A DNA stretch of 53,495 nucleotides from Prorocentrum cordatum (lineage: Eukaryota), in assembly GCA_963575745.1 (NCBI GenBank), contig CAUYUJ010000311.1:62001-115495 (forward strand). Reading direction: 5' to 3'. The notes beneath the pieces are model-generated. The model had not been told where the DNA came from and did not search any database. It saw only the letters and a program-made list of their open reading frames with translations. Made by a program: the position numbers and the translations under genes. Shown here one piece after another: positions 4,048 to 53,495 of this stretch. Positions within the stretch are counted from its first letter, which is position 1. Each line of letters opens with the position of its first letter.

Positions 4048-4380
4048 GTGCCCGGCCGGACCGGGGACCCGAGATGCGTAGAACGACATTCGCGCCCGCA
4101 GCCAAGCCTGCGCTGCCGCCGCTCTCCCCTGGGGCGGGCGCTGCAAAGTGTAAGCTTTGCGTGCGTGGGCAGGCGGCGAGGTATGTGCGCGCGGGTTTGC
4201 GTGGCGTCCTCGTAAGCAAGACTGCATTGGTGGCACGCGTACAGTATATGGTCAGGAACGGTCGGATTTCCCAGCGTCCTCGTAAGTAGGACTGCGTTCG
4301 TTGCACATGTGCAGTCACGGATCGTCGCGTCCGCTTTGAAAAAATGAAGGCCCCAGCAGTCATGGTTCGTTGGCGGTGCC

Positions 4381-5383: not shown

Positions 5384-5399
5384 GCCATTTTGGCTCAAG
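5384..5399 (+). other. Relict dinoflagellate spliced leader (3' 16 nt of DinoSL)
   Basis: GCCATTTTGGCTCAAG is an exact match to the 3' end of DinoSL (DCCGTAGCCATTTTGGCTCAAG) and lies about 100 nt upstream of ATG 5498. Confidence 0.88.
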
Positions 5400-8098: not shown

Positions 8099-8335
8099 CT
8101 GCACCCCCCTGCAGGTAGACGGCCCAAGGCAGGAGTGGACACTAATAACATGTCGAGCTTCCCGCTGAGGCGCCTTGCACACAGTATCTACAAATATCTA
8201 TTCTTCAGGAATAGACGCTTTTCGAAATGATTGTGCTCCCGCCGAGGCGCCGTGCACACAGTATCAAAAAAAAAAATAAATAAATCCTGGGCAGTATCTA
8301 GAAACTGGAGCCGGCAGTGAACCGCCAACCTGGTC

Positions 8336-9494
8336 TGCGATGTCTGCGTTGGCCGATTCGAGCTCCCTGGAGAGCAGGCCGGGACACAGAGAACCTAAAC
8401 AGCAAGGCTGCAAAGATTAAAGCAGAGATGCATTCAAACAGCGAAGCGGCACAGATATGCACAAGACTGCAAGTACACGAGAAAACAACTAACAAAAAAA
8501 TGAGAGAAGCAGTACAGACCATAGATATGGAAGCAAAGCTAGAAGCAGTGAGAGACCATACAGTAACCACTGGTTTATACAGCGATTACCGTCTCAACAC
8601 CACTGAGAAAAAAACACGAAAGTAAGAGAACTGAAATAGCGAATGCGCTTCAAAGCAATGCGAGACCATGCAGTAACCACATATAGCGATTACCGTCTCA
8701 GCACCACTGAAAGACAATGCACGTGAAACACAACGTCAAAATGTGGACTAGATAACGAATTAAGCGGGCAACATACAGAGTGAGCCAAGACACCCACCAC
8801 TACTTAGAGCGAACGCGGGCTCTTATCCCAACAAAGTGGAGATCAGGCGAAGCTCTTATTCAACACACGCGCATGCACGACAACACACACAGGCATGAAG
8901 AAAGGCAACGCAATGACAAATCACAAGAGTTCGAACTCGAAGTATGTGGAAATCAAATGCAATGAAATCTGAACTTCACTCGAGGCGAAGTATGAAATCG
9001 GATGCCCAAAGACCTCAATATCAAGATACTCAAATGTCACAAAATTGTCAAAGTACCTCAATGTCAAAGAAACCACACGTGTACAAGAGCAATAATGAAA
9101 CGAAAGAAACGATTCCAACCACCCCTCGAAGTTTCCCACTGCGTTGTGAATAAGAGTACTCAGACTGCGACCAAAGTCAAAATTGGATACGTGCTGAGAG
9201 CAACTCGTACAAGATAACAAGTGCGGCAAGTACAATCACAAGCGGCCTGGAAGTGCAAGCAGACAATGCAACAAGTACAAAACAAGCGGCCTGGAAGTAC
9301 AGGATAACAAATGCAGCAAGTACGCTCAAAGCAAGCGGCCTATGCACCTGCTCCAATGGGAGCTGTCTCACTTGACACAACAGAGAACCTGGTGCCTATC
9401 GTCTGTAGGCCCACGGAGAGGAGGTCGTCGCAGCCGACGAAGTACCCGAAGATATGGGACGGCCCAGTGGCGTACGATACGTGTGTGTGCACAG
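8336..9494 (-). mobile_element. Non-autonomous retroposon A
   Basis: Flanked by CAACCTGGTC at 8326-8335 and 9495-9504. Its 3' stem-loop resembles E1/B/C. It shares internal repeats with B/C and gcagccgacgaagtac with the E1 5' region (about 9430 vs 15485). Confidence 0.75.
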
Positions 9495-9734
9495 CAACCT
9501 GGTCTGCGGTCTGCGGGGCCCGATTCGAGCCCCCTTAGGGGGCAGGGCCAGCGGTAGGATCACCTACAGGCAACCTAAGCACTAACAGCGGAGCTGTGCG
9601 ATATACAAGTCAGCGTAGCTTTGCATATATGATACAACAGCGTAGCTGCACAGGAATATACACACATCAAGAAACAGTGGGGCTAAGCATGTATCTTACA
9701 ACAGCGGAGCTATGCAGATATTATACACAAACAG

Positions 9735-12700
9735 TCACCTGCCAAGTTGTACGTGTATACACATCTCGGCAATGCCATTGAGAAGAGAATGTGCAGCTGC
9801 CAACTCAGCCTGTGTGATCGTGCAATGGCTAGGGATCATGAAACCTCTGCGGCCAACTCCAGGGTGCCATCCACCCTGCACAAGTCCAGGGGGAAGCTGG
9901 TGAGGAGGAAGAGAGGGAACAAGATAAACATCAATAACCCAGCCACACGAGGTGCCACGCTCACACCGCCCACCGTCAAAAGCTCCTCTAAGTGCACGAA
10001 CAATATAATGACCCGTCTAATATGATAAAGAGTGTTATGATTCCAACGAACATCAGAAGTTACTTTACCCTCACGTGCAAGATGTGTCTCATAGTCCGCC
10101 TCATCGTTGCCCTCCCTATACACCCATTTCCACATATCCCTTCCCACTTCAGCCGTGACAAGATGATGGTCCTCACTCATTCTGTGGAGGCGGTTCTGCA
10201 TACCCTTGATCGTGCGGCGGTATACTTCATTATGACAGCGATATCTTCCATTAAGCCAGCGCACAACACACTGGCTATCCCCACGGAGCTCCAAGCCATA
10301 TCCACCCCCTTCCCCACGCCAAGTGGTTTCATCATCATTTATCGCGGCCAGTCGTTTCGCCACCCGTTCATTTTCCCGTCGTTGCTGCTCCTCAGACTTC
10401 TCCTCCCCCTCCTCCTCCTGCTTGAACTCACCCGTGAAGGGATCCCGAAGAAGGCAGAACTCGAGAAGATCATCCAAGTCCAGGGCGGCCAGGGTACCCA
10501 CCAGGAAAGAACGCCAGCCAGTTTCATTCCAGACCATCGTGCGATCCCAATGAACCCCGCGCGTGTGCTCGAAGACCTCGAACCAAGGCCTGAGTCCCGT
10601 CAAGACTCGATGACGACAGGCTCTAGTAAACCTTCGGCCCCCAGGGAGAGCTCTAACATGTACGTCACGCTGCTCAGTCCACTCCCCCGACGCGTGCATC
10701 ATCGTCAAGGCGCTCTGCATACTGGCAGTGGGCAATCCTCCTTCCTCCTCCCGTGCATAGGTATGGCGTACCCGCTTACGAACAGGCTCATGTACATGTT
10801 GTGAATCGTGATGCTCATATGCCGTGTTCTCCGATATACGTCTGCGAACTGATCTACTTTCCAAGGAAGATGCGCTCTGTGCCTTTCTCCTACACGAACT
10901 GTTGAGCTGTCTGGCATTCGGGGTAGGCGAGGGAACCGATAACTCCAAGAAACGCTGCGAACCACCAAAAATATCAGGATCTCGTGGCTCATGATAAAGA
11001 ATGCCCTGACTGAGTGCGTCCTCATCCACCCGACTATGTTCCTCATGGATTGTGCTCACAACATGTTTGGCGAAGAGCCACTGGCGATGAAGGGCGAGCT
11101 GGACCATCGAAGGCTTACGGGCCCACTTCAATAAGCGACGGCCACCCTTAATCCTCCTGCCCCAGTACTCTCCCCAGGACTCCGTGATCTTCTTTTTGAG
11201 ACGTCTCATGGTGGACAAGAAGTTGCCTTCAGCTGCATGTATCTGTTGGAGACTACTCGAATCCAGAGTCGTACCCTCCAAGCCGTACAGAAAGCAACTT
11301 CTGACCCTGCTATCATAACGCTGAAACTTACAACGAAGCGGAACCACGGGCGACGAGTAAAAAGAAATCTCACTCATGAAGACCCTCCGTGCCTTCTCCA
11401 GTCGGTGCTTAATGTCGTCATGATCCTGAAATCGTACATCCAATAGCGTGCCGAGAACCTCCATCCTCTCCACCTGCTTCACTATCATCTCCTCCGAAGG
11501 GCCTGCGGCGCTCTGGGAAGCCCCACGAGAACGCTTCCTACCCATCTCAGCAGGCAGGAGCCCCGGCACAGGCAGGCGGATATCCTGCAATGGACCTTGA
11601 ACGCCACAAGCCAAGAACTCCATCGAAGATGCTTTCCAGTTGAAACCGAAGCGGTGGAGGACCCCAGTCAAGTCCTCAAGCATATGAGTCAGTTCTCGCC
11701 TGGAAGATGCTGCCAGCAAAATATTGTCTGCCCACAGCCAGTGGTTGACCAAGAGATTGGATGCCTCATCAGTGAGCCTGACGCCGTATCCAGACTGCCT
11801 CCAACCTGCCGTCACTGGTGCAAGCATACGAAGTGTCTGGGCAACAAACAGCAAAGGCGCCTCCAAGGAGCCTGTACGTATGCAAGTATCCCACGAGATG
11901 GTCGTAGAACACTGTTGGAAGCTGATCTCTGCCGTATTACAAGCATAACTCTCAAAGACAGCATACACAAGGGCAGGATGGACATGATGGAATAAAAGCG
12001 CCTCTGCTGCACATCTCACCGTGAAATTATCAAACGCCTTTTCAATGTCAGCACTTGCAAGATAAAGACTCTCCTCCTTCCCCCACACAACGCCGTGTTG
12101 AGCAAGACGTTTGAGGGGGGCCGTGACCTCATAACATTTGTGCCCCGCAATAAAGCCATATAAGTTGCAACCTGGCGGTGCAGCCTGCCGAACGCGGTGC
12201 TCTAGAAGTACACATAGACAACTGCTATACCACTTACCAAAATGAGAAAGAAGTGAGAGGGCCCGCGTTTCTTCAAAATCACGAGCCTTGGGATTCTTAG
12301 GCATCAAGCATACCAAGATCTCTCTCCAGGACTTCGGTGAAACATGTTTCTGATCGTACAGCAAACGGAATAAGGTAAGTATGTGTCGGAGGGCTTCCCA
12401 TGGCAATGCTTTGAGCACCGATGACGTCACCCCGTCTGCACCTGTTGCCCGTCCTTCCCTGAGTCTAGACCGTGCCTCCAGCAAGAGACCCATGTTGATC
12501 GGGTTGCGGTGGGGCTCTCCAGAGTCTCGCAGGGCCTTACACTGGTTCTTAAGCTCATCCAAGCACGCGTTGGTGTCCTGTCGGTGGGGATCGCTGGAGT
12601 ACCTCAGGAGCCCATGCCGCCGAAGGCCCTCAATCCACTTCTCCTGGTCACGCGTGAGGACCCCGTCAACATACATGTGCGTAATAACAGGCCTACGACG

Positions 12701-14002
12701 GACACCATCACGAATACGGTAAAGCTCACATGCACGATCATGACGCTTACGTACTCGACGCCACCTCCTTGCTGTCCCCTTGTACTCCTCCTGGACTCTC
12801 TCGTACTCCTCCTGTCCCACGTTAGCCCCGCCATATCGTGCCACCCTCCACCTCTTCCTGACCTTAAAGAACTCCTCCTTTATCAGTAAATCCTCCTCCG
12901 AATATCTGGGATAGTCTGAAACAGGCTGACCACGGGAACGGGAGATATCCAAAGTCTCACTGGCACCCTCAAGTATACTCTGTGTCATGACCTCAAAACC
13001 TACATCCGTGTGGATCTGATTCACGAGCTCGGGCTGGCAAATCGCTCTCTCCAAGCCGGCTGTCTGCTGGAGCTCGAACCCTGGCTGAAGCTTCCAGGTC
13101 TTGAGCTGAGGCCGACGTCGATACCTCAACTGAGCATGCTGGGCGGGCATATCGGCACACAAGAGCTTGTGATCGCTAAACGTCCTTTCCGTCGCCTCCG
13201 ACCGTGGGACCTGGGACGGCACAACCCAAGAACAAGTCACCTCTGGAGTCATCCAAGAAGCTGGGACCGCAAGATAATCATAGACGTGCTCGTATGTGCT
13301 CGAATTGTGTCTCCAAGTAGGCTGACGAGTCCCAAAAGTGTTGGCTAGCTGCAACTTGAGGGCCCCCATGGTCTTCAGAAAGGCCCCCGAGTACATCTCC
13401 CTCATCCTGTTGGCTCTACTTTCGTCACCTCCACTAGACCTCCCCCTCTTACGTATAGGCCCATTCACCGCCTCCCCCGTAACCTCCACCCCATTGATCC
13501 TGTGGTGCGGGAAAACCTCCACGTTGGCGTCAGCCGAGATAACAACCTCCTCAATGTGAAATCGCTTTTTGGCCGCAGAGACATGTGCAACAAGATCCGA
13601 TAACACGTCCGTATAGAGCTTGAAACTAGCAAGAAACCCTTCAGGAGAACGGCGTGCTTCACCCTGTGCACCCCGCTCAGACTCCTTATGAGGGAGATAG
13701 ACAGAAACGAAGATGAGCTTGCGAAAGATTGCAATGACCCAGCGGCGACCACACACAACATCGATAAGCAGATGTCTCCATACACCTCGGCACAAGATGG
13801 CAGCCCGTCTCCCCACGTTCTCCCCTTCATCTGCCGAGCGATGTATATCCCAACCCGCATCTGCAAGATCCAAGTCGTGTAAGAACTGGCTCTCTTGGAC
13901 CCCGACGATGGAAATCTTTAATTCGGCAATGTGATTCATGCACTCGGAGGTGTATCTTCCCAACCTCCGAACGTTCCAACCTCCAACAGAAGCTGGGCAC
14001 CG
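9735..14002 (-). CDS. E1 ORF2: APE endonuclease, reverse transcriptase and permuted RNase H; frameshift near 10000-10040
   Basis: GWNV, VQE, SVYLP, ADAN, YDYL, SDH (APE); ADIEKAFD, IRTGSLEAP, WADN (RT); GDSQ...REGNDEAD, then in a shifted frame RGAFDGG...TITQAELAAA ending at TGA 9735-9737. The frame is open up to the ORF1 stop at 14003. Confidence 0.88.
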
Positions 14003-15537
14003 TCACGAGCTGCTATTCACCTGCCTCTCCCAAGTCTTGCAGTCCAGATCTGGATCGATGTGCTGGACCCGCTCGGACACGAACTTCCATCCCACGGTAT
14101 CCGTCCACGTACCTACACACACTTTATCACTCTGACTATCCTTCTGCAGGTATGCCCAAGCCTTTGCAGGCCCTTCAGGCTCAAAAGTGATGAGAGCAGT
14201 GGCAACAGTCTTGAGCTTATGAAAGATCGCAGTCGCCTTGCGAGTCTCCCCCACTCTACGTCGGTCCTGTGGTGCCGGTTGGACAAACCAACCGAGGTGT
14301 CGATCTTTGCATGGTCCAAAACTATTCTGACAACCGACCAGATCAGGGCACGAATTGGACCAGGCTGAGGCCCACTCGTTGCGTACTTCCCAGACCGTCT
14401 CTTTCGAAGTCCCTGGCATGAAGTATATGCGAAACTTGGTCACACCAAATCGATTGGAAGCGATATCCCGTCCGTCCTACCTCTGTCGAAGATCTTAGTA
14501 ACGTCACTCTCCCGTGCTTGCGATAGTGTGTACAACTTACCTATCATGTTCCTAACCGTGGTGACCTGGATCTTGGCCTTATCTCGAGTTTCAACCTTTC
14601 GGGGGTCCTCTTGCGCGAAGCCGCTCACCTGGATCCAAGTCGGAACATGTGGTACAAAGGGTCTCTGGAAGTCAGCAGTCCGAGAATCACGAGTAGACGC
14701 ACCTCCCAGAGATGATGAATCTGCCCAGGGATCTCTAGAGTTCATCTGAGACTGAAGTGCTTTGATCTCTTTCGCCTGGGCCTCCTGAGCTGAACGAATC
14801 TCCTGCACCGACGAAGCAATAGGGGCAACCTGCTCTGATACCCTCGTTTGAATCTGCTCTTTGATGTCAACAGAGTTCTGCATAAGCATCCTCTGCATAT
14901 CTTCACGCATGGCATCGAACTGTGCACGGAGCATAGTGGCCAGATCTCCAGCATCACCTCCTCCTCCTCCACTACTACCACTTCCATTCCCACTAACTGC
15001 CCCACCTCCACCACCCTCGGCATCACCAAGAAGACGTCTATCTTCCAGGAGCTTCCTCTGTCGCTTCTCTCCGTTGCCCTCAGTTCCCATATCATCATCA
15101 GAAGTCGGAACCATCTTCCTCTTAAGATCACACTGCCCACAACTGGAAGTAGAATACCGATAAGCTCGACAAGTAGGGCACCTACTAGCCTCCAGATCAC
15201 GATAGTGTTCGTCCTCGAGTTCTTCAAGAAACTTATCCCAACCCCGTGAAGGTGAAAGTCGGTACGTGATGAAATCTGCTGCAACAAAAACGGTCAAAGT
15301 GTCCTTCTCAACTGCCAGAGCAAAACTGGTAAGTGCCGGGCTCCCAAGAGTATCACAAGCAAACAGCAAAGATACAAGTGCAACAGGTAGCGGCCTTGCG
15401 CCTCCAGCGGCACGTGTGGGCTCACCCGCTAACACGAGCAGAGTACAAATGCAGCGACCTATGCGCAGCACGTCCAGGAGGTTGCAGCCGACGAAGTACA
15501 CGAACTTATGGGCCAGCGCGCACCCACGCGCGCCCAC
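14003..15537 (-). CDS. E1 ORF1 (coiled coil plus putative RRM-like domain), frameshifted near 14440; start uncertain
   Basis: ORFs 14440-15537 and 14003-14443. A heptad-rich segment is followed by PTWIQVSGF, matching the motif in the E2-E4 ORF1 proteins. Confidence 0.7.
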
Positions 15538-16035
15538 GGCCGCCCAGGGGGCAGCCTGAGGAGACAGGCTTGAGGAGGCCCCCGACGGGCCAGGCCACCG
15601 CTGAGATCCCCGAGGAGGGACAGCAGCAACCTGGTCACCGCCGGGAACCTCGTAGAGCTCCTTACACTGGTCAGAGTCCTCAGAATCGAAGTGGAGTCAT
15701 AAAACAAAGATTTTCCTAAAATCTTGATTTTCGATTTTTTTTTCGATGTTCATATTGACTCGGTTCCGGGAAGTCAACTCTTAACAAAATACGTCGGGAG
15801 AGCTCAGCTGCTGTCAGAGAGAAGTTTATATGCCAATGCTCGGCGTAAAACTGCTCTCACAAAAAATGGTAAATATCTTTCAAATCTTAGCAAAACCGAC
15901 CCAAAGTCGTCACATATTCTTTTCTGGCCGGGTCGACCAACTAGCTCAACCCCGCGCCGGAATTCCTCTAGCTCATCGATAACGAAGAGCTCTACGAGGT
16001 ATATTGTTGTGCGTCGGCTTCGTCGCAACTTTTAC

Positions 16036-17360
16036 GCCTCAGCCTGCCTGAGCCTCAGCCTTAGCCTGCTTCAGCCTCAGCCTCACTCTTCCTGCAGCCT
16101 CGGCCTCAGCCTCAGCCTGCCTCAGCCTCAGCCTGCCTCAGCCTCAGCGTCAGCCTGCCTCAGCCTCAGCCTCAGCCTGCCTCAGCCTCAGCTTCAGCCT
16201 GCTTCAGCCTCAGCTTCAGTCTGCCTTCAGCCTCCGCCTCAGCCTCAGCCTGCCGCGGCCTCAGCCTGCATCAGCCTGAGCCTCATCCTCAGCCCGCCTC
16301 AGCATCAACCTGCCTCAGCCTCAGCCTCAGCCTCTGCCTGCAGCCTCGGCCTCAGCCTCAGCCTGCCTCAGCCTGAGCCTGCCTCATTCTCAGCCTCAGC
16401 CTCAGCCTGCCTCAGCCTCAGCCTGCCCTAGCCTCAGTCTCAGCCTCAGCCTGCCTCAGCCACAGCCTCAGCCTGCTTCAGCCTCAGCCTCAGTCTGCCT
16501 TCAACCTTGGCCTCAGCCTCAGCCTGCAGCAGCCTCAGCCGGCATAAGCCTCAGCTCATCCTCAGCCTGCCCCAGCAACAGCCTGCCTCAGCCTCAGCCT
16601 CAGCCTGCTTCAGCCTCAGCCTCAGCCTGCTTCAACCTGAGCCTCAGCCTGCCGCCTCAGCATCAGTCTGCCTCCAGCCTCGGTCTCAGCCTCCATCTGC
16701 CTCAGCCTCAGCCTGCATCAGCCTCAGCCTCAGCGCAGCCTGCCTCAGCATCAGCCTGCCTTAGCCTCAGCCTGAGCCTGGCTCAGCCTCAGCCTCAGCC
16801 TCAGCCTGCTTCAGCCTCAGCCTCATTATGCTTGTAGTCTCGGCCGCAGCCTCAGCCCATCCTGAGCCTGCCTCAGCCTCAGCCTCAGCCTGCCTCAGCC
16901 TCAGCCTCAGCCTGCCTCAGCCTCAGCCTCAGCCTGCCTCAGCCTCAGCCTCAGCCTGCTCCGCCCGATCCCCAGTCTGCCCTCAGCCTCGGCCTCAGCC
17001 CCAGCCTGTCGCAGCCTCAGATTGCATCAGGCTCAGCCTCAGCGTCAGCCTGCCTCAGCATCAGCCTGCATCAGCCTGAGCCTCAGCCTGCAGCCTAGCC
17101 TGGCCTGCCTCAGCCTCAGCTTCGCCTTCTTCAGCCTCAGCCTCAGTCTGCCTTTAGCCTCCGCCTCAGCCTAAACCTGCCGCAGCCTCAATCTGCCTCA
17201 GCAAAAGCCTCATCCTCCGCCTGCCTCAGCATCAGCTCGCGTCAGCCTCAGCCTCAGCCTGCCTCAGCCTCAGCCTCAGCCTCAGCCTGCTTCCACCTGA
17301 GCCTCAGTCTGCCTTCAGCCTCGGCCTCAGCCTTTGCCTGCTTCAGACTCAGCCTCAGCA
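16036..17360. repeat. Degenerate (GCCTCA)n microsatellite with GCCT interruptions, about 1.3 kb
   Basis: Directly visible. It produces spurious SA/LS/PQ-repeat ORFs. Confidence 0.95.
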
Positions 17361-17805
17361 TTCAAAGTGTAGCCCGGGAATGGTGTTCTGAGAACTTGAA
17401 GAACACGCAGTGGCCCACAGCTGGCTCCGGACATTCAAAACTGGGAGCCGGCGCTAAACCGTCAACCAGATTACCTCCGGGACCCTCGTAGAGCTCTACA
17501 TAAACCAAGTCGGTTCACTGATAACAGCAGAAAAACGCTCCTCAAAACAAGCTAAAAGCAAAGATGTTGTTTCCGGTGTTACACAACGTTGGTTTCCCCT
17601 GGTCTTTTGACCGAAATAATACAGCTAGAGCCCTGAGGATTACACCATCGAAAGCGCCATGATTAACTGCATACAATAAAAATTCAAATTCGCAAAACGA
17701 ATTTCAAAATCTTGCAATCTTCGAAAATCCGATCCCAGGTCACCACATTGTCCGTCCCGGCCGGGTTGGCCAACTGGGAGCCGGCGGTAAACCGTCAACC
17801 AGGTT

Positions 17806-20149: not shown

Positions 20150-20159
20150 CAACCTGGTC

Positions 20160-43900: not shown

Positions 43901-44659
43901 ATGGTCACTGTAGCGTGACGCTCGATCCTGTGTAGGATCAACAAATTCCACCGTGCATTCAAATGAGCAGTTGGTCCGAGCCTCCTCGGTACCTGCAAAT
44001 TGTGTCGGCACAAATACATAGTCCAACACCCTGGAGTAGCTGCTGGTACTCCACGGCCTGTGCGTCACTTGTCGCACGCCGTAGGTGTTGGCTGCACAAA
44101 GACCCCAGTGATTCAGAAAGCGCACGAGCATGTCCCTCCTCTCCTCATGATGTCTCGCCTCCGACCTCATCCACACCTCCTCCAATCCTTCTCCCGTGAA
44201 CCCCAAGAGATTTGGTTCCAGCTCCGTCTGCGCACCTGCCCCCACAAACTGCAATACATTGGACCCCTGGTATTGCTCGCTACATAGTTGCATGCATGCA
44301 CACAGCTTAGCTAGAACGTCACAATATTCATCGAGCCTATCATCTCCCCGCTGCACTGTGGGTAGGTACACTGAGGACACGACCACAGATGCAAATTGTA
44401 CAACTGCAAACCTCTCACCGCACTTACTGTCCGAAATAGTCGCCGCCCATAGGCCCCTGAAGGCCACAGCAGCTCGTCGGCACACACTAAAACGCACCTG
44501 CCACCCACATGCTTCAAATGCTTCGGATAACATGTACTGACACTCCTGCAAGCATAGCACATCACAATGACAAAACTCCAGCATTGCTGGCAAAAGCTCG
44601 CTATTCCTCATGTTGACATTCCAAGTTGCCACCGCGAGCTGAGTGGCAGACTGGCACCG
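40925..44659 (-). CDS. E3 ORF2: APE, RT and permuted RNase H; the APE xDxN motif is degenerate (GAGAQ)
   Basis: ATWNV, LQE, SVYLP, LDY, SDH; MDVKKAFD, VRTGGKEGP, WADN; GDSKTVV...REANAYAD...WDGG...TEAELSA. Confidence 0.9.
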   Translation of the reverse strand, partial: RCQSATQLAVATWNVNMRNSELLPAMLEFCHCDVLCLQECQYMLSEAFEACGWQVRFSVCRRAAVAFRGLWAATISDSKCGERFAVVQFASVVVSSVYLPTVQRGDDRLDEYCDVLAKLCACMQLCSEQYQGSNVLQFVGAGAQTELEPNLLGFTGEGLEEVWMRSEARHHEERRDMLVRFLNHWGLCAANTYGVRQVTHRPWSTSSYSRVLDYVFVPTQFAGTEEARTNCSFECTVEFVDPTQDRASRYSDHAKVGVRIKHASVRKPFVRPRPPSLINWAPEDYESANVFSTLADVQVQQHMNQQGDINIQTVGQMLVSAATMCRHTKGRADTKPIKKPDQVVDVEAELRRGVFGERRKQLLRRQKTLRRKFRREQLLKDSTGLKHGPRRCIKEMLCDGILTENKQRWVEELNKHVQRSYTCDGEGGAAKRELHRLRTQWEAEGRTTNRVISMGVLLGARARLKGGTAAGSDGLVAEFLKAIPWNALRLIRHSFQEIHDQKKSSPDSWRKLCVQLIPKMSMIQTFGETRAISLLSVMSKWYMACPLILVEEHGHIKELATYGFQKSHKVHHMTAPLLHMTRHATLWGKGESVHMGIMDVKKAFDHVTVSMVIRAMEHLRYPTYLIIAIVEPMIGNTAVFDFQDVCSEEILYNKSVRTGGKEGPVLFNIVLEAIWASIAESWEACHYGVRLEGEGTQQALVNHYIWADNVVLLAASANQLRNMVSMLTVALRRAGMDWKIESLEYLVFGLRQNQGPQSLVCELGDDICARAGDPSLPYQLREAVVLPRKSECDILGVKFVANPRDFHAVRHRIDAGRRCFYADIKFYRSRAVSMREKFRRYQSRVQQIICHGCVGWSCNEHVLNILRSFEGICLNTMRGLHRKETEAWEEFRDRSTNRSREMFKEGGLKTLVEKVVRYNFEFAVEVSQYKCHMPSTVYSKSWQQTLRSMLHVSGEWTVQRDEMLAAVSRTMSREGTRRLRGRPRIVASSWHAPFEKWRSLLWHDTCVVPTDWEEFVERISQIPKVEDMFVRRSKERRMGGFAKTPTDDELARRLAVINEQTTIWDPGMEGIAVEMCGDSKTVVQWLRGVWACDNSGYAKRIARIQNIMYDVSEQHNIRCPTYGRDFWKHIYREANAYADELTHHAREGNCYRIYKHDYIKQNRTNIKYIRGCWDGGVSSEGAAGGHWIEVAPENGPWTLVSSEAYMFDVGATVTEAELSAAERLCTGVEHIVKEISSAKRRRRI

Positions 44660-46279
44660 TCAATTGTTCGTCTGTCTGGGCTTCGTGAGTAACCCCTCTT
44701 GATCCACCTCAGGCTCCACCCTCCTCAGATTATTAGTGTGTAGCGCCCACCCGCTGTGTACACCCCATTCAGCAATCAGTACTCTGGTGTCTGGATCTGC
44801 TTGTGGGTTTTGTGTAAACCATATGTATGATTTTGGCGGCCCTGGCTCCCCCTTGCATATTGTCCCCGTCGTTGTCTTCACTTCCGCAAAGCAACTCTGG
44901 AACTTACCAATCTGTTGGACATGGGGTGTTCTCCATGGCGCGCATTCTACATGAAACTTTACATTCGGTGGTAGGTCAGTGTTTCCCCTCTTGTATTCGC
45001 TGTCGAAACAATTCCGAACCTGCCATATGATCTCCACTGCCGTCCCCTTTTTGAAATAGATCCGCCCTCGTGTGTATGGCCAGTACCTGCCAGTATTCTC
45101 CCCCGCAGTTCTCGCATGATCAAAAGCAGCATTATGTGTTGCGTCCAGCGATGCCAATCCCAATAATTTTGTTATGTTGTCGGCCAGCACCTGTTGTTTC
45201 AAGGCCTCCCTTTGTTTTATCTCTCTATTCTTCCAACCCTCACGTGATATCCAACCTTTGAACTCAATATATGATGGTACCCAGTTCGAATTTGCCCTGC
45301 ACCACTGCCCGCATCACCTGATCCGTATCTAGTCGAACCGCTTGCGCAAGATTGAGCGTCTCCATTTTTCAGATTCTGAATGTCAGCTTGGGCCTGCTTC
45401 ATTTGCTCAGATAACGTTTTGACATCTGACGTTGATGGTACCCAGTTCGAATTGTGCCCTGCACCACTGCCCGCATCACCTGATCCGTATCTAGTCGAAC
45501 CGCTTGCGCAAGATTGAGCGTCTCCATTTTTCAGATTCTGAATGTCAGCTTGGGCCTGCTTCATTTGCTCAGATAACGTTTTGACATCTGACGTTGTTCT
45601 ATCAATCTTTTCCTCCATGACATGTAAATCAGCTGCAACCGATGTTTTGAACTCACTAACCGTCGCAGTTACTTCACTCTGGCCCTTCAAAATCTGTCTG
45701 AACATTTCCTCGGGCGTCATTGTAGCTGGTTGAGGCGCCTGGACAGCAGCACTTTGAGCTACGGCCAGACCACTCGTAGCCTTGGGGACTTGGGCTGTAG
45801 CTAGATGAGGCGCCTGGACAGCAGCACTGGAAGCCGCGGCCAGACCACTCGAAGCACTGGAACCTTTGCCCTCCCCTTTTCGCCCTCACCTCTCTCAACC
45901 ATTCACTACTCGCATTCCCTCCCATTTTGCTATCTTCTGCTTTGTCATCCGCCATGATTGCTGACGAACGTCGTTTATTTCTCTCTTTGACTGTACGCAA
46001 TGTGTGAAGTGCAGCCTGATATCTATCTGATTGCCCAATCTTCTTGAAATCGTACGCTTCCTGCTGAACAAATGCCTCTGGTGGAGAAATTTCCAATTCC
46101 AGTGCTATCTGATCTTCTCTCTTCTCCTGCGTCGTTAATCGCGGCACAGTAGCTGATGTGTCTTTCAACCAATCACACGGATGTGGGTCACAATCCACAC
46201 CAAAGTCAGCTGACGTGAAATATTCACTCTGATCGTCTTCTGATGGTATAATATATGCTCCCTGCGAGTCCGTTTTCAA
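44660..46279 (-). pseudogene. E3 ORF1, broken by frameshifts and an internal duplication of about 161 bp (45272-45432 / 45433-45594)
   Basis: ORF pieces 45674-46279, 45217-45720 and 44660-45202. Coiled coil and WVPSYIEFKGW motif across the shift. Confidence 0.75.
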
Positions 46280-46521
46280 TCCAACAGCCCACAGTGGTCT
46301 TTTGTAAAATCCAGACAGATCCTGATCTTCCTGCGATCCCCACGATATCTTGATATCAAGAACGAGAGCGAGGATTCAATGTGAACACAGCCCCCGCGAT
46401 ACGTCAAACACGCACCGCACGAGAGGGGGGCTCGAGGCAAGCCTGCGTGCGTGCCCTGACGTGGGCCCTGTTCGACGTCGAACCCTGACGTCTCGAACCC
46501 TGACGTCTCGAACCCTGACGT

Positions 46522-46548
46522 CTTGAGCCAAAATGGCTTGAGCCAAAA
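46522..46548 (-). other. Two tandem relict dinoflagellate spliced leaders
   Basis: The minus strand reads TTTTGGCTCAAG-CCATTTTGGCTCAAG at the exact 5' junction of E3. Confidence 0.9.
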
Positions 46549-47840
46549 TCTGCCAAGGTAACTTGAAGAATGCGAAGAGCTTTGCTGAGCTAGTCCGAGA
46601 GACAAACCGAGTTCAGACCTGGATGCAACAGACGAGCGCGCAGAATGATTTCGAATCAGTTTCTGTGCGCATCAGCTGTGTAGCTCTCTGACAGCACCTG
46701 TCAAGATAACTCGAACAATACGAATGGGTTTGCGAACCTAGCTCGAGTAGCACACCGAGTTCAGACCTCTGAATGCGACAAGCGGACGCGCCTCATGTCC
46801 GAATCGATTCCTGTGATTATGCCCCCTGCAGCCCCCCTACAGACCGATTTCAGTGCAGAAACCCGACAGCACCTCCCAAGATGACTCGATCAATACGAAT
46901 AGTTTCGCGAACCTAGCTCGAGTAGCAGACCGAGTTCAGTCCTCTAAATGCGACACGCGAACGCGCCTGATGTCTCCGAATCGATTCCTCTGATTATGAG
47001 CCCTGTAGCCCCCAACAGCCCGAGTTAAGTGCAGAAAACCGACAGCACCTCTCAAGATGACTCGAACAGTACGAATAGTTCGCGACCTAGCTCTGGCAGT
47101 AGACCAAGTTCAGAGCTCTGAATTAACAGACAAACGCGCCCGATGATTCTGAATCGGTTTCTGTAAGTATAAGCTCTGTAGCTGTGCTACAGCTCGAGTT
47201 AAGCACAAAAAACCGACAACGTCTGTCAAGATGACTCGAATAATACGAATAGGTTTGCGGACCTAGCTAAGCTAGCAGACCGAGTTCAGACCTCTGGATG
47301 CGACAGACGAACGCGCCTGATCATTCTGAATCGATAAGGTGTGCTTACCAGCTCAGTAGCTGTCCTGTATCTCGAGTTGAGTCCAATATACCGACAGCGC
47401 GTATCAAGATGACTCGAAACGGCCGATCCCGCCACAGTGCTTTTCGATAGTAAGATTCACCCGATCTAGCTTAGATCAAGATGGCGAGCGGGAATAAGAT
47501 CGAACATCACGGGAAAAAATACTAGAGCTCAAACGAATGTTCAAATTTTGAGAACATAATTTTCAAGAGAGAGCTTCTCGAAGCATTTCTCGAAAAATTG
47601 AACATTGATTTTGTAAATGTCGAAATCAAATTGGTTTCCCAAATTGTTTCGGTAGTGAAAGAGCGCCTAGAAAGCTCATACTAAGACGCTGGAGCTCTCA
47701 TAACCTTTTACAGGTGCGAAAAATCTGCTTTCTCAAAATGAATTGTCAAACGGCAACCGGCGGTGAACCGTCAACCAGGTTCTAGGCGTTCTAGGCGGGC
47801 CCTAGCAGGGTTAAGCTCCTTAGGAGCCCCAGACCCAGTC

Positions 47841-50800
47841 CTACAGGGGATATCCTGACAAACTCAGGATATGCACCACTCCTAAAAGGAGCTCTCGGGC
47901 AGCTTCTAACTCAGCCTCTGTGATAGTGCATTGCGCTGGGAGAAGGAAGCTTTTGAGACCTACATTCTGGCGCCAGCCAGTCTGATTATAGTAAGAAGAA
48001 GAGGGGAGAGCACTACACACATAGCAATCCAGATACCAGCCACAGCCTACACCAAGAATCGATCTCCCACCATCAAAGCCTCCTTTGATCCCCGAGATCA
48101 CAACTTTACAAACTTTCACTTCCTGAAGAAAACAAGTGTCATAATGTTCGTAACATTCACCTCTCCGCGCGGTCCACGTTAATTCATCGGCACGAGTATT
48201 GCCCTCCCTATACACCCACTTCCACACGTTCCGTCCTAAATTGGCAGCTCGTAGTCCACATCTGTCGGCTAGATCGTTTGTAGTGTCCTGCGCCCACATC
48301 ACGCGGCTAGCATCCTTTCTATTAGTGATACTACTCAAGCCCTCCAACCACCTGATCACACATTGTGAATCCCCCATCAGTTCCACAGAAATTTTCCCTG
48401 GCACGAACTCAAATTCAGTATGATCCTGGAATATAGCAATGAGACGTTTGGCAAACTTATCTGGGTCCTCCTGCTTCTTAATCGTCTCCTCCTCCTCCGA
48501 CTCCTTCCAGGGCATAGGGTCTTTCAATACACAAAGGTTCAACATCTCAGGAGCGTCCTTCAAGACAGTCCTCCCAAAGAATATCCAGCTAGCCTCATCC
48601 CAAGCAATACCGTCGATCCAGAACTTCCCCGCCACCTCTTCGAACACCCTGGCCCACGGACACATACCCAGAAGCTTGGTTGACTGTCCCCTGGCTCTCG
48701 TCACCTCCCGTGCACTCTGCGTGTCAAGAGTCGCAATAAAGTCATCCCGTCTAGCAGTCCATTCGAAACCTGCATGCAGCATGAGAAGCCTACTTTGAGC
48801 ACCTCGGTCAACATGCTCCCCTTCACGAAAACGAAGCTTTCTCCCTGGAAATCGACCCTGCTTCTCCTGGACCCTGGTCTGCAACCTGGACGTGTTCTGA
48901 GACAACCCTTCACAAGCACGTTTTGCCTCCCTGATGAGAGCACTCTTCCTCTTCCTCCTGTTTGGCTCCTCCACCTCCACCTCCATCATCTCCTCCTCCA
49001 CGCTCTTCCCAATCAACTGAGACCCTCCCGTTGCAGAGATGCTCGAGTCCTGCAGCGAGTCTGGCATATTTTCAAAGCACTCCGTGGCAATATCCTTGGC
49101 CCACAAGAACTGCTTGTGCAGGTACAGCTGGACCAAGGACGGTTTCCCTTCCTTGAGTAGCATCGAGCGCCCACGTCGAAACATACGTGTGATGAAGGTC
49201 GCGAAGTCCTCTCCGTTGCGCTTCTGGCGCCAGCACATGCGAGAGAGCATATTGCCCTCCTCCTTATGTAGAAGTCTCAAAACACCAATATCTGAAGATG
49301 AACCCTCAACTCAATAAAGAATCTGAACTCTCACTCTTGCATCATATATTTTGAATTTTCGTCGCCAAGGAATGACCATACTCTGATAATATCGTCGATC
49401 TCGCCAAAAAGCTGAAATACCTTTTTGCAGTCTGTATCGAATATCGTGATAGTCATCGAGTGTTCTATTCAACTTCGTGCCCAAAACGATGATCTCGTCA
49501 ACCTGCTTAAGTTCCACAGTGGTCTGGTTGACAGCTTCAGATGGCGACACATCCAGAGCCCCATTTGAACTTCCACACATATGGTTTCTAACACCCGAGC
49601 TTGAACTTCCACACATATGGTTTCTAACACCTGAGCTGGAACTTCCCAATCTCTCCAGTCCTGGTGGTGTCATGGTAACCGTGAGCGGGTCGAAGACATT
49701 CTTCAGCGCGCCAATGTCCATATACTCGAGCGAGGTAGGCTTCCATCTGAGTCCCCATGCATGTAGTGGTACAGTGAGCTGCCAGATCATCTCCCTCAGT
49801 GCTGGTCTAGAATCAGCAATCAAAACAAAATTATCCGCCCAAATGAAGTGCGAGATCGTAATAGAAGCAGCCTCATGTGATAGCTTCAGGCCTATACCTT
49901 TTTGTTCCCAGTCCGAGAGCACCCTGCCCAAACATGCAATCGTGACAATATTCCAAATATCAGGGCCTTCAAGGGACCCCGTTTTGATACATGAGCTCCA
50001 CGGTAGGCTTGCTGATTCCACTGGACCAAATCGAAAAGTCGCCGTTACATCTGCATTCTGCTCCAAGATCGCATACGCTAGCTCTGGGTCAACATTAATA
50101 TCATACATCGCTCTGTCTGCCATCGGTATCGTGATGTTGTCAAAGGCGCATTCAACATCTAGAACTCCCACACATGCATTCTCGTGCTTCCCCCAGAGCC
50201 TGGCGTGCCTAATCAAGTTCTTCAATCCTGCTGTTATCTCCCTGCATTTCCGTCCCTCATGAAATCCATACAAATTGATTCCCGTCCGAGGCGTATTCTG
50301 TTCAACATGACGATTGAGTAAGATACACAAACACGCCGTATACCATTTCGAAAGCACGCTATTGAGAGCCAAAGTACGCGTACTGGTGAACTCTGGCTTC
50401 TTCGTATCCTTCAAGATGAGTGTAGCTAGTAAGTTTCTCCAAGACGGCGGTGACTGCAATCGTCTATCATACAGCTGCTGGAAACAATCCAAGACCACTC
50501 TGAGGGCCTCCCAAGATAGGCTGCGTAAAAGAGCTGCTGATATACCGTCATAGCCAACTGCCTTGCCCACCTTGAGGCGAGCTCTCGCTTTATGTAGAAT
50601 ACTCATCGTGATGGGAGAAGAATCTGCATTGAGTCGAGTGTGCTGGATTGCTCGCTGCTTAAGTCGAGCCAAGCATTCTACATTTTGTTGATGGAGTGTT
50701 TGGCTGGAGTATTTCACCCGGGCGATTTTGGCGATTTCCGCTTTCCAGGACTCTCGATTCTCTGTCATGGTACCGTCAATTTTCATGTGTGTGACGACTG

Positions 50801-52188
50801 TGTGTGGTTTACCCTCATCCCGATACTTATGTTCCAAGATACGCCTACGAAGTTCACGTCGGACCCGATTCCACCTACGCCGAGAATCTTTGAACTCCTT
50901 CTCATCCACCTCCCCCTTTCTTCCACCTCTTGTGCACCCCATAGTGGTAGTCCCGAACCTCCTTCTCCTCCTCCGTGAGTTTCAGATCGTTGCCAATCGA
51001 GGTCTTCAGCTCGAAGAGCTTTTTGTCCTCAACCGCACCAGCCTTCAATCGCTCCTCGAAGATATCTAAAGAGATCGTCCCCCACCTAGTCCTGCACACA
51101 TGCTGCTCCATCAACCCCTCCTGGTCCTCAACCTTCTCCTCGCCTCTATCCCTCCTCCTTTTCGTCGCTCTTCTCCTATCACACTCACCGTTCGAAATCC
51201 CCAAGACACGCTCAGCAATAACACGACGCACTTCCACATCTTTCCCTGGAATTGGTCTCCATCTCGCCAGGCTGCCAAGAACACGAGGTCCTTTACCAAC
51301 ACGAGCAGGGGGTCCAGGGAGAAAACAACTAACCATCTTATGATCACTCCAACGGTCTACTCTCTTATCTCCGAGCGGCTTGATAAAATCGCATCTGGGG
51401 TCTCGTCCAGTGTGACACCAATCCTTCGGTACAGCTATGTAGTCCAGGACCTTATATGTGTTCATGCTACTTCGGAAAGTCGTACATCTCTCACCGTGAG
51501 TGTTTATCAGGGTCAACTGCAGACGTGCCATGGCCATGCACAAGCTCCTACTCATGTAGTATCTGTACTTCTCACGCATTTTCTCAAACCCTCCCTGGCT
51601 GCTCTTACCTGTGGAGGCCTGCACACCTTTCCCCGTGACCTGCACCCTATCAATGGTGACATCCTGATGGACCTCAACATTCGCATCCATCATGATTACA
51701 ACCTCTTTTATCCCAAACTTTTTCCTAAGCTCGATGATCGTCTCAACAAGCTCTAACAAGATGTCCTGATAGAAAGTAAACATACGATCCATTTGGGCGG
51801 CTGGACGCCCATAGAACTCTACATGAGGTAGATACAATGAGGCAACTATTAGAGCACCGATTCTGGGACCCCGAAGGGCAACAACAACGAATCTTCTACG
51901 CTCTCTAGTCTCAAGAATGCTATCCTGCAACCCATTTGCAATCAAAACCCCTGCAGTCCCCTCAATACATCTGCGATCGCGAGCATCATCCCCAAGAACA
52001 TGTTGCGTGGACCACTTAGCTTCATACCCTAATTCGTGCACGAGGTACGACGGTACATTCTGGCACTCCTGGAGGCCGATAAGTTCCATCCCCTCATGTT
52101 TCAAGAAACCCAGGGCATGCGATGTTTCAACCCCATCACCCTTCATTTTGATATTCCACGATGCGGTCCGAATCCGCTGTGGCCGTCG
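47841..52188 (-). pseudogene. E4 ORF2 (APE, RT, permuted RNase H) in three pieces: 50902-52188, 49311-50942, 47841-49280
   Basis: ASWNI, LQE, SLYLP, MDAN, LDY, SDH; LDVECAFD, IKTGSLEGP, WADN; GDSQ...REGNTRAD...FDGG...TEAELEA. Includes a 36-bp in-frame duplication (SSSSGVRNHMCG). Confidence 0.88.
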
Positions 52189-53448
52189 TCAGAAACGATT
52201 ATGTTGGTTGAGTTCGGTCTGCCAGTTCGCAACGTGGATCGACGTGCTGATCTTCTCAACCTCGGAGGTCTTCAGCTTCCACCCCTCCTCAGATGACCAC
52301 GTGCCCAAGCATACCCTGTTGCTCATATCATTTTTGTTAGGAAAGCCCCAGGCCCAGGAAATACTGGGTGGTCCATATTCCACCCGCACAGTAGCATTCT
52401 GCTCTTGAGGAGTACTGCCCTTGCGCTTGTGATACGTAGCGATGAGCTTCGATCCCGCTTGTATTTGTTGAACTTTCCATAAGGCCGTCTCCACCTTCAC
52501 ACTGATGTAACTCTGAATCGCTGGACCAAACTTATCATCAGCCCAGAGCTCTCCAGTCCTGGACGTAACTGCTTCATGAATAGCACGTTGCAGATTCCAA
52601 ATCTGATATTTCGTAATGCTGGTCTCAAGAAAGAACTTGATCCTGAACAAGCCGTATGGTTTGCGTGTATTCTCTCTCTGAGTCGCTATATCATCAAGAA
52701 CTTTCACTGGCACCTGCTTCGAGCGATCTTCAAATTTACAAAAGATATTCTCCACCATCCACGTGACAATCCTAGTACCCCTTTCCTCCGACATGATGTT
52801 GTTTGTCCTCGCCGTCAGGTCCCTCGGATCTCCTGAAGTCCAGCCTTGCAGACTGATCCATCCTGGTTTGAAATCGGCCCTGGTTTTGTTCCATTCAACG
52901 CGTGAGGCTGTGAATCTCGTTGAACCTGATGATCCTGCCTCCGACGGTGGCGCACCCGTTCCAACACCAAGATTCTGAGGGGGGTGTCCTTGGATGGCGG
53001 CAAAGAGCTGTGCATGTATTTTCTTCTGATCTTCTTGGCCCTTCTGAAGATCTGAGATATCTTTCCGCAGCGGTTCCAATTCACGATGCACATCCTTGAC
53101 CATCTCATTCTTAATATCTGTGAAAGTCGCCTTCAACTCATCTTTCATCGAAGAAAATTCACCTCTAAGAATTGAAATCGTAACAACCTGCTCCTCACCA
53201 ACTGCTGCGCCTCTACCGAGACCTTTTGCGACAACATGGCGTGGGGACGCTGGCGCACGGGCACGTTTTGTCCGCTCATCCACTCCAGTCTCACCATCAC
53301 GCTTTCCAGGAAGAGCCATATCAGCATCCCCATCCCCCATATGTTGCTGTCCTGATACTACCACTGCTGCTGCCGCCAGTTCTCCTGCTCCCCCTTCTGC
53401 CTGCTGCTGCTGTCGAAGAAGTGCTGCCTGCTGTTCTTCAGACGTCAT
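52189..53448 (-). CDS. E4 ORF1 (coiled coil plus putative RRM-like domain)
   Basis: 419-aa ORF with a heptad region and PGWISLQGW. Confidence 0.8.
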   Translation of the reverse strand: MTSEEQQAALLRQQQQAEGGAGELAAAAVVVSGQQHMGDGDADMALPGKRDGETGVDERTKRARAPASPRHVVAKGLGRGAAVGEEQVVTISILRGEFSSMKDELKATFTDIKNEMVKDVHRELEPLRKDISDLQKGQEDQKKIHAQLFAAIQGHPPQNLGVGTGAPPSEAGSSGSTRFTASRVEWNKTRADFKPGWISLQGWTSGDPRDLTARTNNIMSEERGTRIVTWMVENIFCKFEDRSKQVPVKVLDDIATQRENTRKPYGLFRIKFFLETSITKYQIWNLQRAIHEAVTSRTGELWADDKFGPAIQSYISVKVETALWKVQQIQAGSKLIATYHKRKGSTPQEQNATVRVEYGPPSISWAWGFPNKNDMSNRVCLGTWSSEEGWKLKTSEVEKISTSIHVANWQTELNQHNRF

Positions 53449-53495
53449 TTCTGGAATGGCAAGGTGATTACCGACGTATCTGGTTCCTGGACGAT

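Follow-up and report, generated by a model that had tools for sequence, protein, structure and literature searches.

Long interspersed nuclear elements (LINEs) of the L1 group encode, in the second of two open reading frames (ORFs), an N-terminal apurinic/apyrimidinic endonuclease (APE) followed by a reverse transcriptase (RT). ORF1 supplies a coiled coil followed by alpha/beta domains, the copies carry target-site duplications (TSDs) and undergo 5' truncation, and non-autonomous partners are mobilized in trans. The two ORFs are joined by a spacer or an overlap, the 3' tail is poly(A), and motif C of the RT reads ADD, with the same two Asp residues (D-D) that are found in the other retroelement RTs such as those of HIV and telomerase. 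Here, we describe a nest of mobile elements from the dinoflagellate Prorocentrum cordatum (contig CAUYUJ010000311.1, positions 62,001 to 115,495 of the forward strand; this whole stretch of 53,495 nt is referred to as the window). Its four autonomous elements, E1–E4, resemble L1 in the features listed first, the fold of ORF1 being a prediction. They differ from it in having a single in-frame UGA between the ORFs, ADN in motif C, an RNase H domain with apparently swapped halves and a 3' tail made of two units of 7–9 nt. This likeness to L1 is judged from solved structures, among which human L1 ORF2p is the nearest protein. We consider it likely that E1–E4 are members of a large family of dinoflagellate APE-type LINEs that combines the junction, the WADN motif and the swapped RNase H, and that this family operates by the mechanism proposed below.

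The nest runs from ∼8.3 kb to the end of the window and lies on the minus strand only (coordinates are collected in Table 1). Each autonomous element consists of ORF1 and a long ORF2 of 1244–1388 amino acids, in which the domain order in the full elements is endonuclease, RT and RNase H. Pfam RVT_1 is recognized in all four RT pieces (E between 1e-14 and 3.8e-6, with E2 slightly below the curated cut-off), and E3 ORF2 gives additional weak matches to Exo_endo_phos and RVT_3. The Exo_endo_phos match has an E value of 2.7e-4 in E3 and 5e-5 in the database relative P0021, both under the curated cut-off. E1, E2 and E4 carry all four endonuclease motifs (WN, QE, DANVE and SDH). Compared with solved structures, the ORF2 profile matches human L1 ORF2p with an E value of ∼3e-12 and R2 proteins with ∼3e-6. 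Together, the RT, the endonuclease motifs and the match to L1 ORF2p identify E1–E4, as judged from their predicted proteins, as APE-type non-LTR retrotransposons. Further hallmarks of LINEs are the TSDs (13 bp for E3 and ∼11–12 bp for E2) and 5' truncation, element B being a 5'-truncated copy of element A. One point weighs against the family reading: E3 has WN, QE and SDH but reads GAGAQ instead of DANVE (∼44190–44215, minus strand, ORF2 residues ∼150–157). E3 is also the sole element that lies outside the hairpin spacer described below, yet its TSD is clean.

The ORF2 proteins of the four elements are only 23–38% identical in pairwise comparisons, and no similarity between their coding DNAs was found at E ≤ 1e-10. 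The preliminary description of this DNA, made from the sequence alone, had claimed that four clearly divergent elements share one set of oddities. All four were found, and the junction, the WADN motif and the swapped RNase H are present in each of them; the hairpin target is common to three of the four lineages. The copies differ in their state of preservation. E2 is open throughout both ORFs, while E4 contains one frameshift and one in-frame stop. In E1, ORF1 is frameshifted near 14440 and the RNase H tail is also frameshifted, so that its second half lies out of frame and ends at ∼9735. The conserved T-Q-A-E-L helix of E1 is seen at 9735–9827 (minus strand), past the listed ORF2 stop at 9836, which places the true end of ORF2 near 9735 and makes the 3' untranslated region shorter than the ORF list implies. 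ORF1 of E3 is disrupted by a 161–162-nt tandem duplication (45272–45432; listed also as 45272–45596) and a 1-nt insertion at 45877, and E3-family contigs from other public runs contain neither of these.

Motif C of the RT reads WADN in all four elements. It does so as well in the two loci that a related-locus search recovered from JGI metagenomes; the same search found none in viral and prokaryote collections. One of these, L002, is a full-length and fully open element, 52% identical to E1 in ORF2, in which the junction, WADN and the swapped RNase H are all present; the other, L001, is a partial locus in which WADN and the swapped RNase H are seen. When 1.84 billion representative proteins were scanned in full with HMMER, using a profile that extends from the RT to the end of ORF2, 17,373 proteins were matched at E ≤ 1e-3, 3,454 at ≤ 1e-10 and 217 at ≤ 1e-30. 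A word-indexed protein search returned ten weak matches for E3 ORF2 and three for L002 ORF2, and LINE-like clusters were matched in the ESM Atlas. The contigs that encode the relatives, most of them 4–9 kb long, are from ENA, JGI/IMG, Logan and NCBI. The best 150 of the 217 HMMER proteins were aligned to the profile together with 10 + 2 hits from the protein searches, the window elements and L002. Among the 132 aligned sequences with a complete motif C, which include the four window elements and L002, 87 have Asp-Asn (D-N) in this motif. The individual counts are WADN 76, WADD 20, FADD 16, YADD 4, WSDN 4, WVDN 4 and WMDD 2, with YADN, FADN, WFDN, WANN, FAED and WADS occurring once each. The WADN-type RT that had been noticed in the window is thus widespread in database proteins.

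In a FastTree phylogeny of the 89 sequences that cover at least 80% of the RT core, read for its topology only, made without named LINE references and rooted on the FADD/YADD proteins, the D-N sequences fall mainly into one large group. A second, smaller set of WADN proteins, P0135 among them, groups with WADD sequences, and the FADD/YADD proteins lie outside. We infer that an RT with D-N in motif C works: the open frames of E2 and L002, the intact TSDs and the near-identical copies in several runs all argue for this. E3-family contigs occur in marine metagenomes and in three organisms. In four public runs they reach at least 99% identity and are accompanied by empty-site joints, the contigs aligned on E3 reporting presence and variants only. 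These copies and joints, together with the fully open L002, point to recent activity.

The closest parallels for the way in which the elements integrate are the target-specific APE LINEs (R1, TRAS/SART and the Tx1 group), which insert repeatedly at one nucleotide position of a multicopy sequence and form tandem arrays because the TSD regenerates the site. Tx1L, for example, sits inside the Tx1D transposon. Transposons are named among LINE targets in the portion of PMC4640811 that covers them, and in the window the target is likewise another mobile element. It is a module of 60 nt consisting of GCTCTACGAG, a 10-bp arm CCGGCGGTAA, a 14-nt spacer with GGTTGACGG, the complementary arm TTACCGCCGG and then CGCCCAGTT. 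The DNA past CCCAGTT differs from copy to copy, and the module forms the common 3' end of two retroposons, T and H, which are arranged head to tail, each ending in the module and each with variable 5' ends. A preferred target inside another mobile element, as had been proposed, is therefore borne out. Searches of the window with Rfam (at the gathering threshold) and ARAGORN returned no RNA gene, which means that the module does not correspond to any known RNA gene.

The window contains 14 intact modules, four that are occupied (in one case with the left arm outside the window) and one that is partly deleted. This corresponds to 17 left arms (14 intact and three occupied) and 19 right arms (14 intact, four occupied and one partial). 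The occupied modules carry E1+C, B+A, E2 and E4, which amounts to at least six insertions (E1, C, B, A, E2 and E4), all at GGTTG/ACGG. Left junctions lie after GGTTG(A/C) and right junctions restart with the same part of the spacer, which identifies the TSD as spacer sequence and places both nicks between the arms. In E2 the duplicated part reads AAGGAAGGTTGA, and in E1, C and B it reads ACCAGGTTG(C). The loop variant is identical on both sides of E2 and of E1+C, and the tandem pairs hold one further copy of the TSD in between, as expected from a second hit on a regenerated site. Target-specific LINEs are recognized by independent insertions into one position of a repeated target, and such insertions are found at four modules. 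The site differs from those of the known target-specific elements in being the spacer of a 10-bp inverted repeat, and in being common to three lineages with such low protein identity but not to their sister E3.

Recognition may extend to the inverted repeat itself. The alternative, to which we give nearly even chances, is that the target is read as plain sequence (GGTTG/ACGG and its neighbours) and that the inverted repeat is irrelevant to integration. The spacer core GGTTGAC is nearly invariant. Although stem pairing is kept in 95.7% of the cells, compensation is confined to one of the ten pairs (A-T replaced by G-C in two of the 14 intact modules), and 51 of 500 shuffles attain the observed covariation score. 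E3 has integrated elsewhere with a normal TSD: it lies in a subrepeat of H between perfect 13-bp repeats (46546–46558 and 40851–40863), and contigs from two other runs join these flanks without the element. Moreover, the flanks of B+A carry different stem variants, TGA on the left and TTA on the right. All of this weighs against recognition of a hairpin. What favours it is that both nicks fall inside the spacer and that the TSD equals the part of the spacer between the arms. In addition, the single strand folds well in two of the three intact modules tested (z-scores of −3.4, −1.7 and −1.8), and one site has been retained by three LINE lineages whose proteins have diverged strongly. The idea of hairpin-loop targeting put forward in the preliminary description consequently holds, as a position, for E1+C, B+A, E2 and E4 and fails for E3.

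A closer look at the arms around B+A reveals the G variant GGTGA in the left arm before B (22041–22062) and the T variant TTTACC in the right arm after A (17781–17800; minus strand), and with such differing arms the flanks do not look like halves of one module. The possibility that the right arm is part of the LINE 3' end was considered and dropped, since E3 and L002 do not have it. New H and T copies, often 5'-truncated (one of ∼127 nt, 35565–35439), start exactly after the preceding CCCAGTT. Judging from these junctions, H and T also seem to insert site-specifically, at a position other than the LINE site. No partner LINE with the 3' end of H or T was found in the window.

As to the place of the family among described LINEs, four features of its sequences appear to set it apart: the swapped RNase H, D-N in motif C, the in-frame UGA-CGR junction (R being A or G) and the inverted-repeat-spacer target. 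No LINE with any of them was found described in the open full-text literature, a search that did not extend to Repbase, Dfam and subscription journals. The family may be a new clade, as the preliminary description proposed, or it may belong to an already catalogued one (for example in Repbase or Dfam from Symbiodiniaceae or Polarella) whose traits are known to curators. Dinoflagellate genomes hold tens to hundreds of megabases of LINEs according to parts of PMC8045281, so repeat libraries surely include such elements, and the nearest solved RT is that of L1 ORF2p. On the other hand, searches of the same open full texts found nothing on a WADN RT or on a circularly permuted retrotransposon RNase H, and we regard a catalogued clade with these traits as unlikely, though well worth keeping in mind.

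For human L1, termination-reinitiation or internal non-AUG initiation has been proposed as the source of ORF2. In E1–E4 the arrangement is of another kind: ORF1 ends in TGA and ORF2 runs on from the very next codon, in the same frame and with zero spacer, in all four elements. E1 and E3 continue with CGG, E2 and E4 with CGA. The junction of L002, an intact E1-like metagenome contig, reads TGA CGG, so TGA-CGR is present in all five elements for which the junction was checked at the DNA level. In the same five, the first Met of ORF2 comes after WN, the first endonuclease motif, which an AUG-started ORF2 would miss. Reassignment of TGA as a sense codon was rejected, since ORF2 of E1 and E2 itself terminates at TGA (TGA-T, compared with TAA in E3 and TAG in E4) and the codon thus still serves as a stop elsewhere.

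In the scheme of Beier and Grimm, UGA-CGG is the type II context for readthrough, and it is found in alphaviruses, tobraviruses, furoviruses, coltiviruses and several plant viruses (PMC3159437, in the part dealing with these contexts). As in these viruses and in retroviral Gag-Pol, the two proteins of the family share one frame; as in the viruses, UGA followed by CGG stands between a structural or nucleic acid-binding protein and a polymerase. The type II signal, UGA followed by CGG or CUA, is present in this form in E1, E3 and L002, whereas two lineages have CGA. The family further differs from the viral cases in being a cellular retrotransposon that is known here from its sequence, and in that no supported counterpart was found of the stimulatory 3' stem-loop, which in type II readthrough lies ∼8 nt downstream. 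We regard readthrough that produces an ORF1–ORF2 fusion as the most likely reading of the junction.

Several observations weigh against readthrough. A hairpin is predicted to begin 9–14 nt past the stop in each of E1–E4, but the 120 nt downstream of the stop fold no better than shuffles do (z-scores between −1.9 and +1.5), and a supported common 3' structure was not found. In many of the more distant relatives a Met precedes the endonuclease, and the arrangement of TGA-CGR without an early Met may thus be confined to the subclade that holds E1–E4. Finally, the public runs listed as containing E3 include no RNA run, so that readthrough, the fusion protein and the activities of the D-N RT and of the RNase H are proposals drawn from sequence; what stands of the earlier claim of a readthrough ORF1–ORF2 is the in-frame junction and the missing early Met in all four elements and L002. 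On these grounds ORF2 could instead be made by termination-reinitiation or by internal non-AUG initiation, with TGA-CGR kept for another reason, the more so as some distant relatives have a Met of their own. Reinitiation, however, needs no shared frame, and it would leave unaccounted for the same frame, zero spacer, stop and CGR in five of five elements from four lineages as divergent as these. Since UGA followed by C, and CGG especially, is documented as leaky (parts of PMC3159437), we consider a mechanism other than readthrough improbable.

ORF1 itself gave no Pfam family in the four window pieces or in L002. An AlphaFold model of low confidence (predicted local distance difference test, pLDDT, of 62) contains a helix at residues 2–73, a linker and then alpha/beta domains, and a fold search returned only coiled coils and ferredoxin-like folds at Z ∼7, with none standing out. 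The model is compatible with an L1-like ORF1p (coiled coil, RNA-recognition motif and C-terminal domain; Pfam Transposase_22).

In an ordinary type 1 RNase H, the catalytic residues follow each other as D10 (in DG), E48 (in AE), D70 (in DS) and D134 (in N..AD). The motifs after the RT of the family come in the order GDS..V..WL.G, RE.N..AD, [FW]DGG and T.AE[LV], which corresponds to D70-R-D134 followed by D10-E48. This order is in frame in E2, E3 and E4; E1 also has the second half, though out of frame. Among 29 sequences that cover the domain, D70 and D134 are kept in all 29 and D10 in 28, the exception being the decayed E1; the commonest variants of the E48 segment all retain the Glu. In the predicted fold, the colinear succession b1-b2-b3-aA-b4-aB-aD-b5-aE is replaced by b4-aB-aD-b5-aE-b1-b2-b3-aA. 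Positions 147–222 of the family profile match residues 69–134 of the 140-residue RNase H 3u3g (E = 0.0019), and 4e19, 3aly, 2ehg and 4h8k match likewise, always through their C-terminal halves. For the other half, the last 74 amino acids of the WADD relative P0042 match positions 5–55 of Pfam RNase_H (E = 6e-4), with residues 1050–1067 of the same protein matching positions 105–122 of RVT_3, and P0001 matches RNase_H positions 6–57 (E = 0.08).

We next consider the predicted structure. An AlphaFold model of the last 325 amino acids of E3, calculated from a 25-row alignment, has a pLDDT above 90 over residues ∼125–320. Read along the chain, its elements are a strand, two helices, a strand and a helix, and then three strands and a long helix. 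Alignment with VIA-align to 48,161 chains gave RNase H1 chains at Z 3.4–3.6 with 21–27% identity, covering model residues 141–232 only. Based on the motifs and this model, the C-terminal region is very probably one permuted RNase H domain with its halves swapped and all its catalytic residues kept, in agreement with the permutation suggested earlier from E1–E4 and now also seen in L002 and other relatives. The RE.N..AD motif carries Arg at the His position, a hallmark of archaeal-type RNase H (parts of PMC4640811). In this respect the family resembles the LINEs with RVT_3/archaeal RNase H, plant L1 and oomycete Utopia, which have R for H in D-E-D-H-D (same source, in part) but in which the domain is colinear and not rotated, with the D70-R-D134 half before the D10-E48 half, as it is here.

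Against a single permuted domain stand a Foldseek search of the PDB with the E3 model, which found no RNase H (as expected for a permutation, but no proof of one), and the profile of the second half, which has no significant sequence match among solved RNase H chains. The region might accordingly be viewed as the C-terminal half of a degenerate RNase H joined to an unrelated beta-beta-beta-alpha module, inactive or with another role. The half-domain matches obtained in the structure searches, and the empty result of hhalign against the ordinary RNase H of P0135, would fit this as well. Yet the D..E pair stands in the typical context [FW]DG..G.G...T.AE and is kept in 28 of the 29 sequences, and the same segment of the WADD relatives is the one that Pfam matches to RNase_H. 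The model packs both halves as one domain at high confidence, and the order of its elements is an exact rotation of that of RNase H. Two unrelated modules therefore appear quite improbable, more so than an ORF2 made without readthrough.

The swapped order also occurs in the WADD relatives P0001, P0031, P0042, P0050, P0078 and P0100, which makes the swap older than the change from Asp to Asn. Scored by regular expression in the 89 sequences of the tree, the order is swapped in 20 D-N and six W.DD proteins, cut off after the first half in eight, undetected in 27 D-N, nine W.DD and 17 F/Y.DD proteins, and flagged as possibly ordinary in two. Inspection by eye revealed that P0046, one of those flagged, ends after the first half, that the long undetected sequences P0045 and P0122 are swapped with an N..SD variant, and that P0076 and P0052, also long and undetected, end ahead of the RNase H region. 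Every inspected member with a complete C-terminus has the swapped order except P0135. This WADN protein of 1604 amino acids speaks against a strict association, as an RNase H of ordinary order follows its RT. Past it lies a family-type first-half stretch that lacks the catalytic Asp, perhaps the remains of the swapped domain and thus an instance of domain replacement. That the RNase H domain is gained and replaced as a module, as P0135 suggests here, is a further likeness to plant L1 and Utopia. When the half-profiles were aligned to P0135 with hhalign, the ordinary RNase H was missed and the degenerate family-type segment was picked instead.

Taken together, the recurrence of the traits in copies that are only 23–38% identical and in the intact L002, and that of WADN with the swapped RNase H in many database proteins, supports the view, already expressed in the preliminary description, that the shared oddities are lineage features and not decay. 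The expectation that the traits occur together in homologues holds in part: WADN and the swapped RNase H recur widely together, but the latter extends to WADD relatives, so that the two have unequal depths in the tree. That the oddities are decay or assembly artefacts of dead copies is hardly credible: E1, E4 and ORF1 of E3 are indeed broken, but E2 and L002 are open throughout and hundreds of database proteins from several sources keep the traits.

The three non-autonomous partners proposed earlier, A, B and C, were confirmed. At least their last 100 nt are common to E1 and L002, and A also has ∼55 nt of the E1 5' end. The ORFs of A and B (18501–19709 and 20689–22038, minus strand) encode 402–449 amino acids that are rich in AVGSS repeats and belong to no Pfam family. 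Stringent LINE/SINE (short interspersed nuclear element) pairs with a 3' stem-loop and a short repeat tail are known from the eel (UnaL2/UnaSINE1) and the CR1/L2 group. The present elements are similar in that autonomous and non-autonomous copies share the last ∼100 nt and in that a nested stem-loop lies 15–35 nt before a tail of short repeats. Each tail consists of two copies of a 7–9-nt unit, such as CGCAGAC CGCAGAC in E1, CGCCTAGAA twice in E4 and ACCAAAC twice in E3. The stem-loop is seen before the tail in all eight elements, with an outer stem of 3–6 bp, an inner stem of ∼5 bp and a loop of 3–6 nt. It differs from that of UnaL2/UnaSINE1 in that the stems are specific to each lineage and in that the structure comes from single-sequence folds with mostly insignificant z-scores. 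No usable consensus was obtained with MAFFT/RNAalifold, E2–E4 being misaligned. The nested stem-loop may be a recognition element for the RT, and as read from these folds it is a lead only.

At the 5' end of E3 (46522–46545, minus strand), GGCTCAAG and then CCATTTTGGCTCAAG are found right after the 5' TSD. These are relics of the dinoflagellate spliced leader, and a truncated relic combined with a full one marks retroposed genes (PMC12014239, in the relevant part). Their presence in E3 identifies the host as a dinoflagellate from the sequence itself. The two relics in E3 suggest that its transcript was trans-spliced, copied, transcribed and trans-spliced again. L002 starts with CTCAAG and GGCTCAAG fragments (positions 19–46), and E1 has a degenerate CTCAAG ∼55 nt in. 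Spliced-leader relics at LINE 5' ends suggest that the transcripts of LINEs undergo trans-splicing and are copied over their whole length. The left, GC-rich part of the window has a second relic-like match at 5379–5399 (plus strand), with two mismatches to the 21-nt spliced-leader pattern. It adjoins a 337-bp tandem repeat (4380–5383), and from its sequence it may be the 5' end of a retrogene. Two unrelated tandem arrays lie between the elements, at 16036–17360 and 31258–32453, the second with an 89-nt unit.

Table 1. Coordinates of the elements and of their main features (positions in the window; L002 positions refer to that contig).
Feature	Position	Strand	Description
E1	∼15625–9504	−	Decayed autonomous element; ORF1 ∼14006–15113, TGA 14003–14005, CGG 14000–14002, ORF2 from 14002
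E2	∼29145–23508	−	ORF1 27676–29145, first Met ∼28746; TGA 27673–27675; CGA 27670–27672; ORF2 23701–27672
E3	46545–40864	−	ORF2 40925–44659, open; TGA 44660–44662; CGG 44657–44659
E4	Beyond 53495 to ∼47781	−	5' end off window; ORF1 52192–53493, TGA 52189–52191, CGA 52186–52188
E4 ORF2, APE	50902–52188	−	Followed by frameshift
E4 ORF2, RT	49311–50981	−	Followed by in-frame stop
E4 ORF2, RNase H	47841–49310	−	
WADN codons, E1	11723–11734	−	
WADN codons, E2	25414–25425	−	
WADN codons, E3	42533–42544	−	
WADN codons, E4	49830–49841	−	
Putative swapped RNase H, E3	40928–41530	−	GDS 41414–41431; RE.N..AD 41243–41266; WDGG 41132–41143; TEAEL 41006–41020
A	20148–17804	−	Non-autonomous; E1-type 5' end (∼55 nt) and 3' end; 402-aa ORF without Pfam family
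B	22029–20159	−	5'-truncated A-type copy, 97.5% identical to A over 680 nt; 5' junction in inverted-repeat spacer
C	9493–8335	−	Internally deleted E1-type element, tandem behind E1; TSD copy ACCAGGTTGC between
3' stem-loop and tail regions	9496–9565, 8331–8400, 17801–17870, 20161–20230, 23502–23571, 40871–40927, 47777–47840	−	
3' stem-loop and tail region, L002	5660–5729		
Intact target module (one of several)	40626–40699	−	Spacer with GGTTG/ACGG
Host retroposon array	29146–40850, continuing 46546–47776	−	H, 0.13–1.5 kb units with ∼175-bp subrepeats; T, ∼370 nt

From these features the following mechanism can be proposed. Most ribosomes would stop at the UGA and yield ORF1p, while a minority would read through and make the ORF1–ORF2 fusion, as in retroviral Gag-Pol. 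The RT would function with a single Asp in motif C, and the swapped RNase H would fold as a single, active domain. Integration would be target-primed. The E1, E2 and E4 lineages would nick both strands ∼10 nt apart inside the 14-nt spacer of the 10-bp inverted repeat, itself the 3' end of other, SINE-like retroposons. The spacer would be duplicated as TSD, and repeated hits would build the tandem arrays E1+C and B+A. A, B and C would be mobilized by the E1 machinery via the shared 3' end. The transcripts would be capped by spliced-leader trans-splicing, with the leader copied back into DNA, as suggested by E3 and L002.

If every part of this picture is combined, E1–E4 would represent a widespread and active superfamily of dinoflagellate LINEs outside the described clades. 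It would have the first natural circularly permuted RNase H of a retroelement, an RT without the second Asp of motif C and Gag-Pol-style readthrough of UGA. It would integrate in the hairpin loop of SINE-like cohabitants, and its full copying of spliced-leader-capped transcripts would make it a likely engine of spliced-leader-tagged retrogenes. We put forward this joint reading tentatively and regard it as doubtful in its entirety.

In genome papers, dinoflagellate LINEs are handled only as a bulk class, as far as the relevant parts of PMC8045281 go. The genomes of these organisms are huge, rich in LINEs and contain many retrogenes with spliced-leader relics, and the window supplies the anatomy of one large LINE family. 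A natural circular permutant of RNase H, if true, bears on the evolution of protein folds and on the arrangement of RT and RNase H on the template, and the functional-looking RT with D-N in motif C contrasts with the D-D of the other retroelement RTs. A virus-like readthrough signal would set the ratio of ORF1 to ORF2, and a target site within other retroposons would account for the nested tandem arrays. If the same enzyme also copies cellular mRNAs, which is speculation, this family would be a candidate source of the retrogenes of dinoflagellates.

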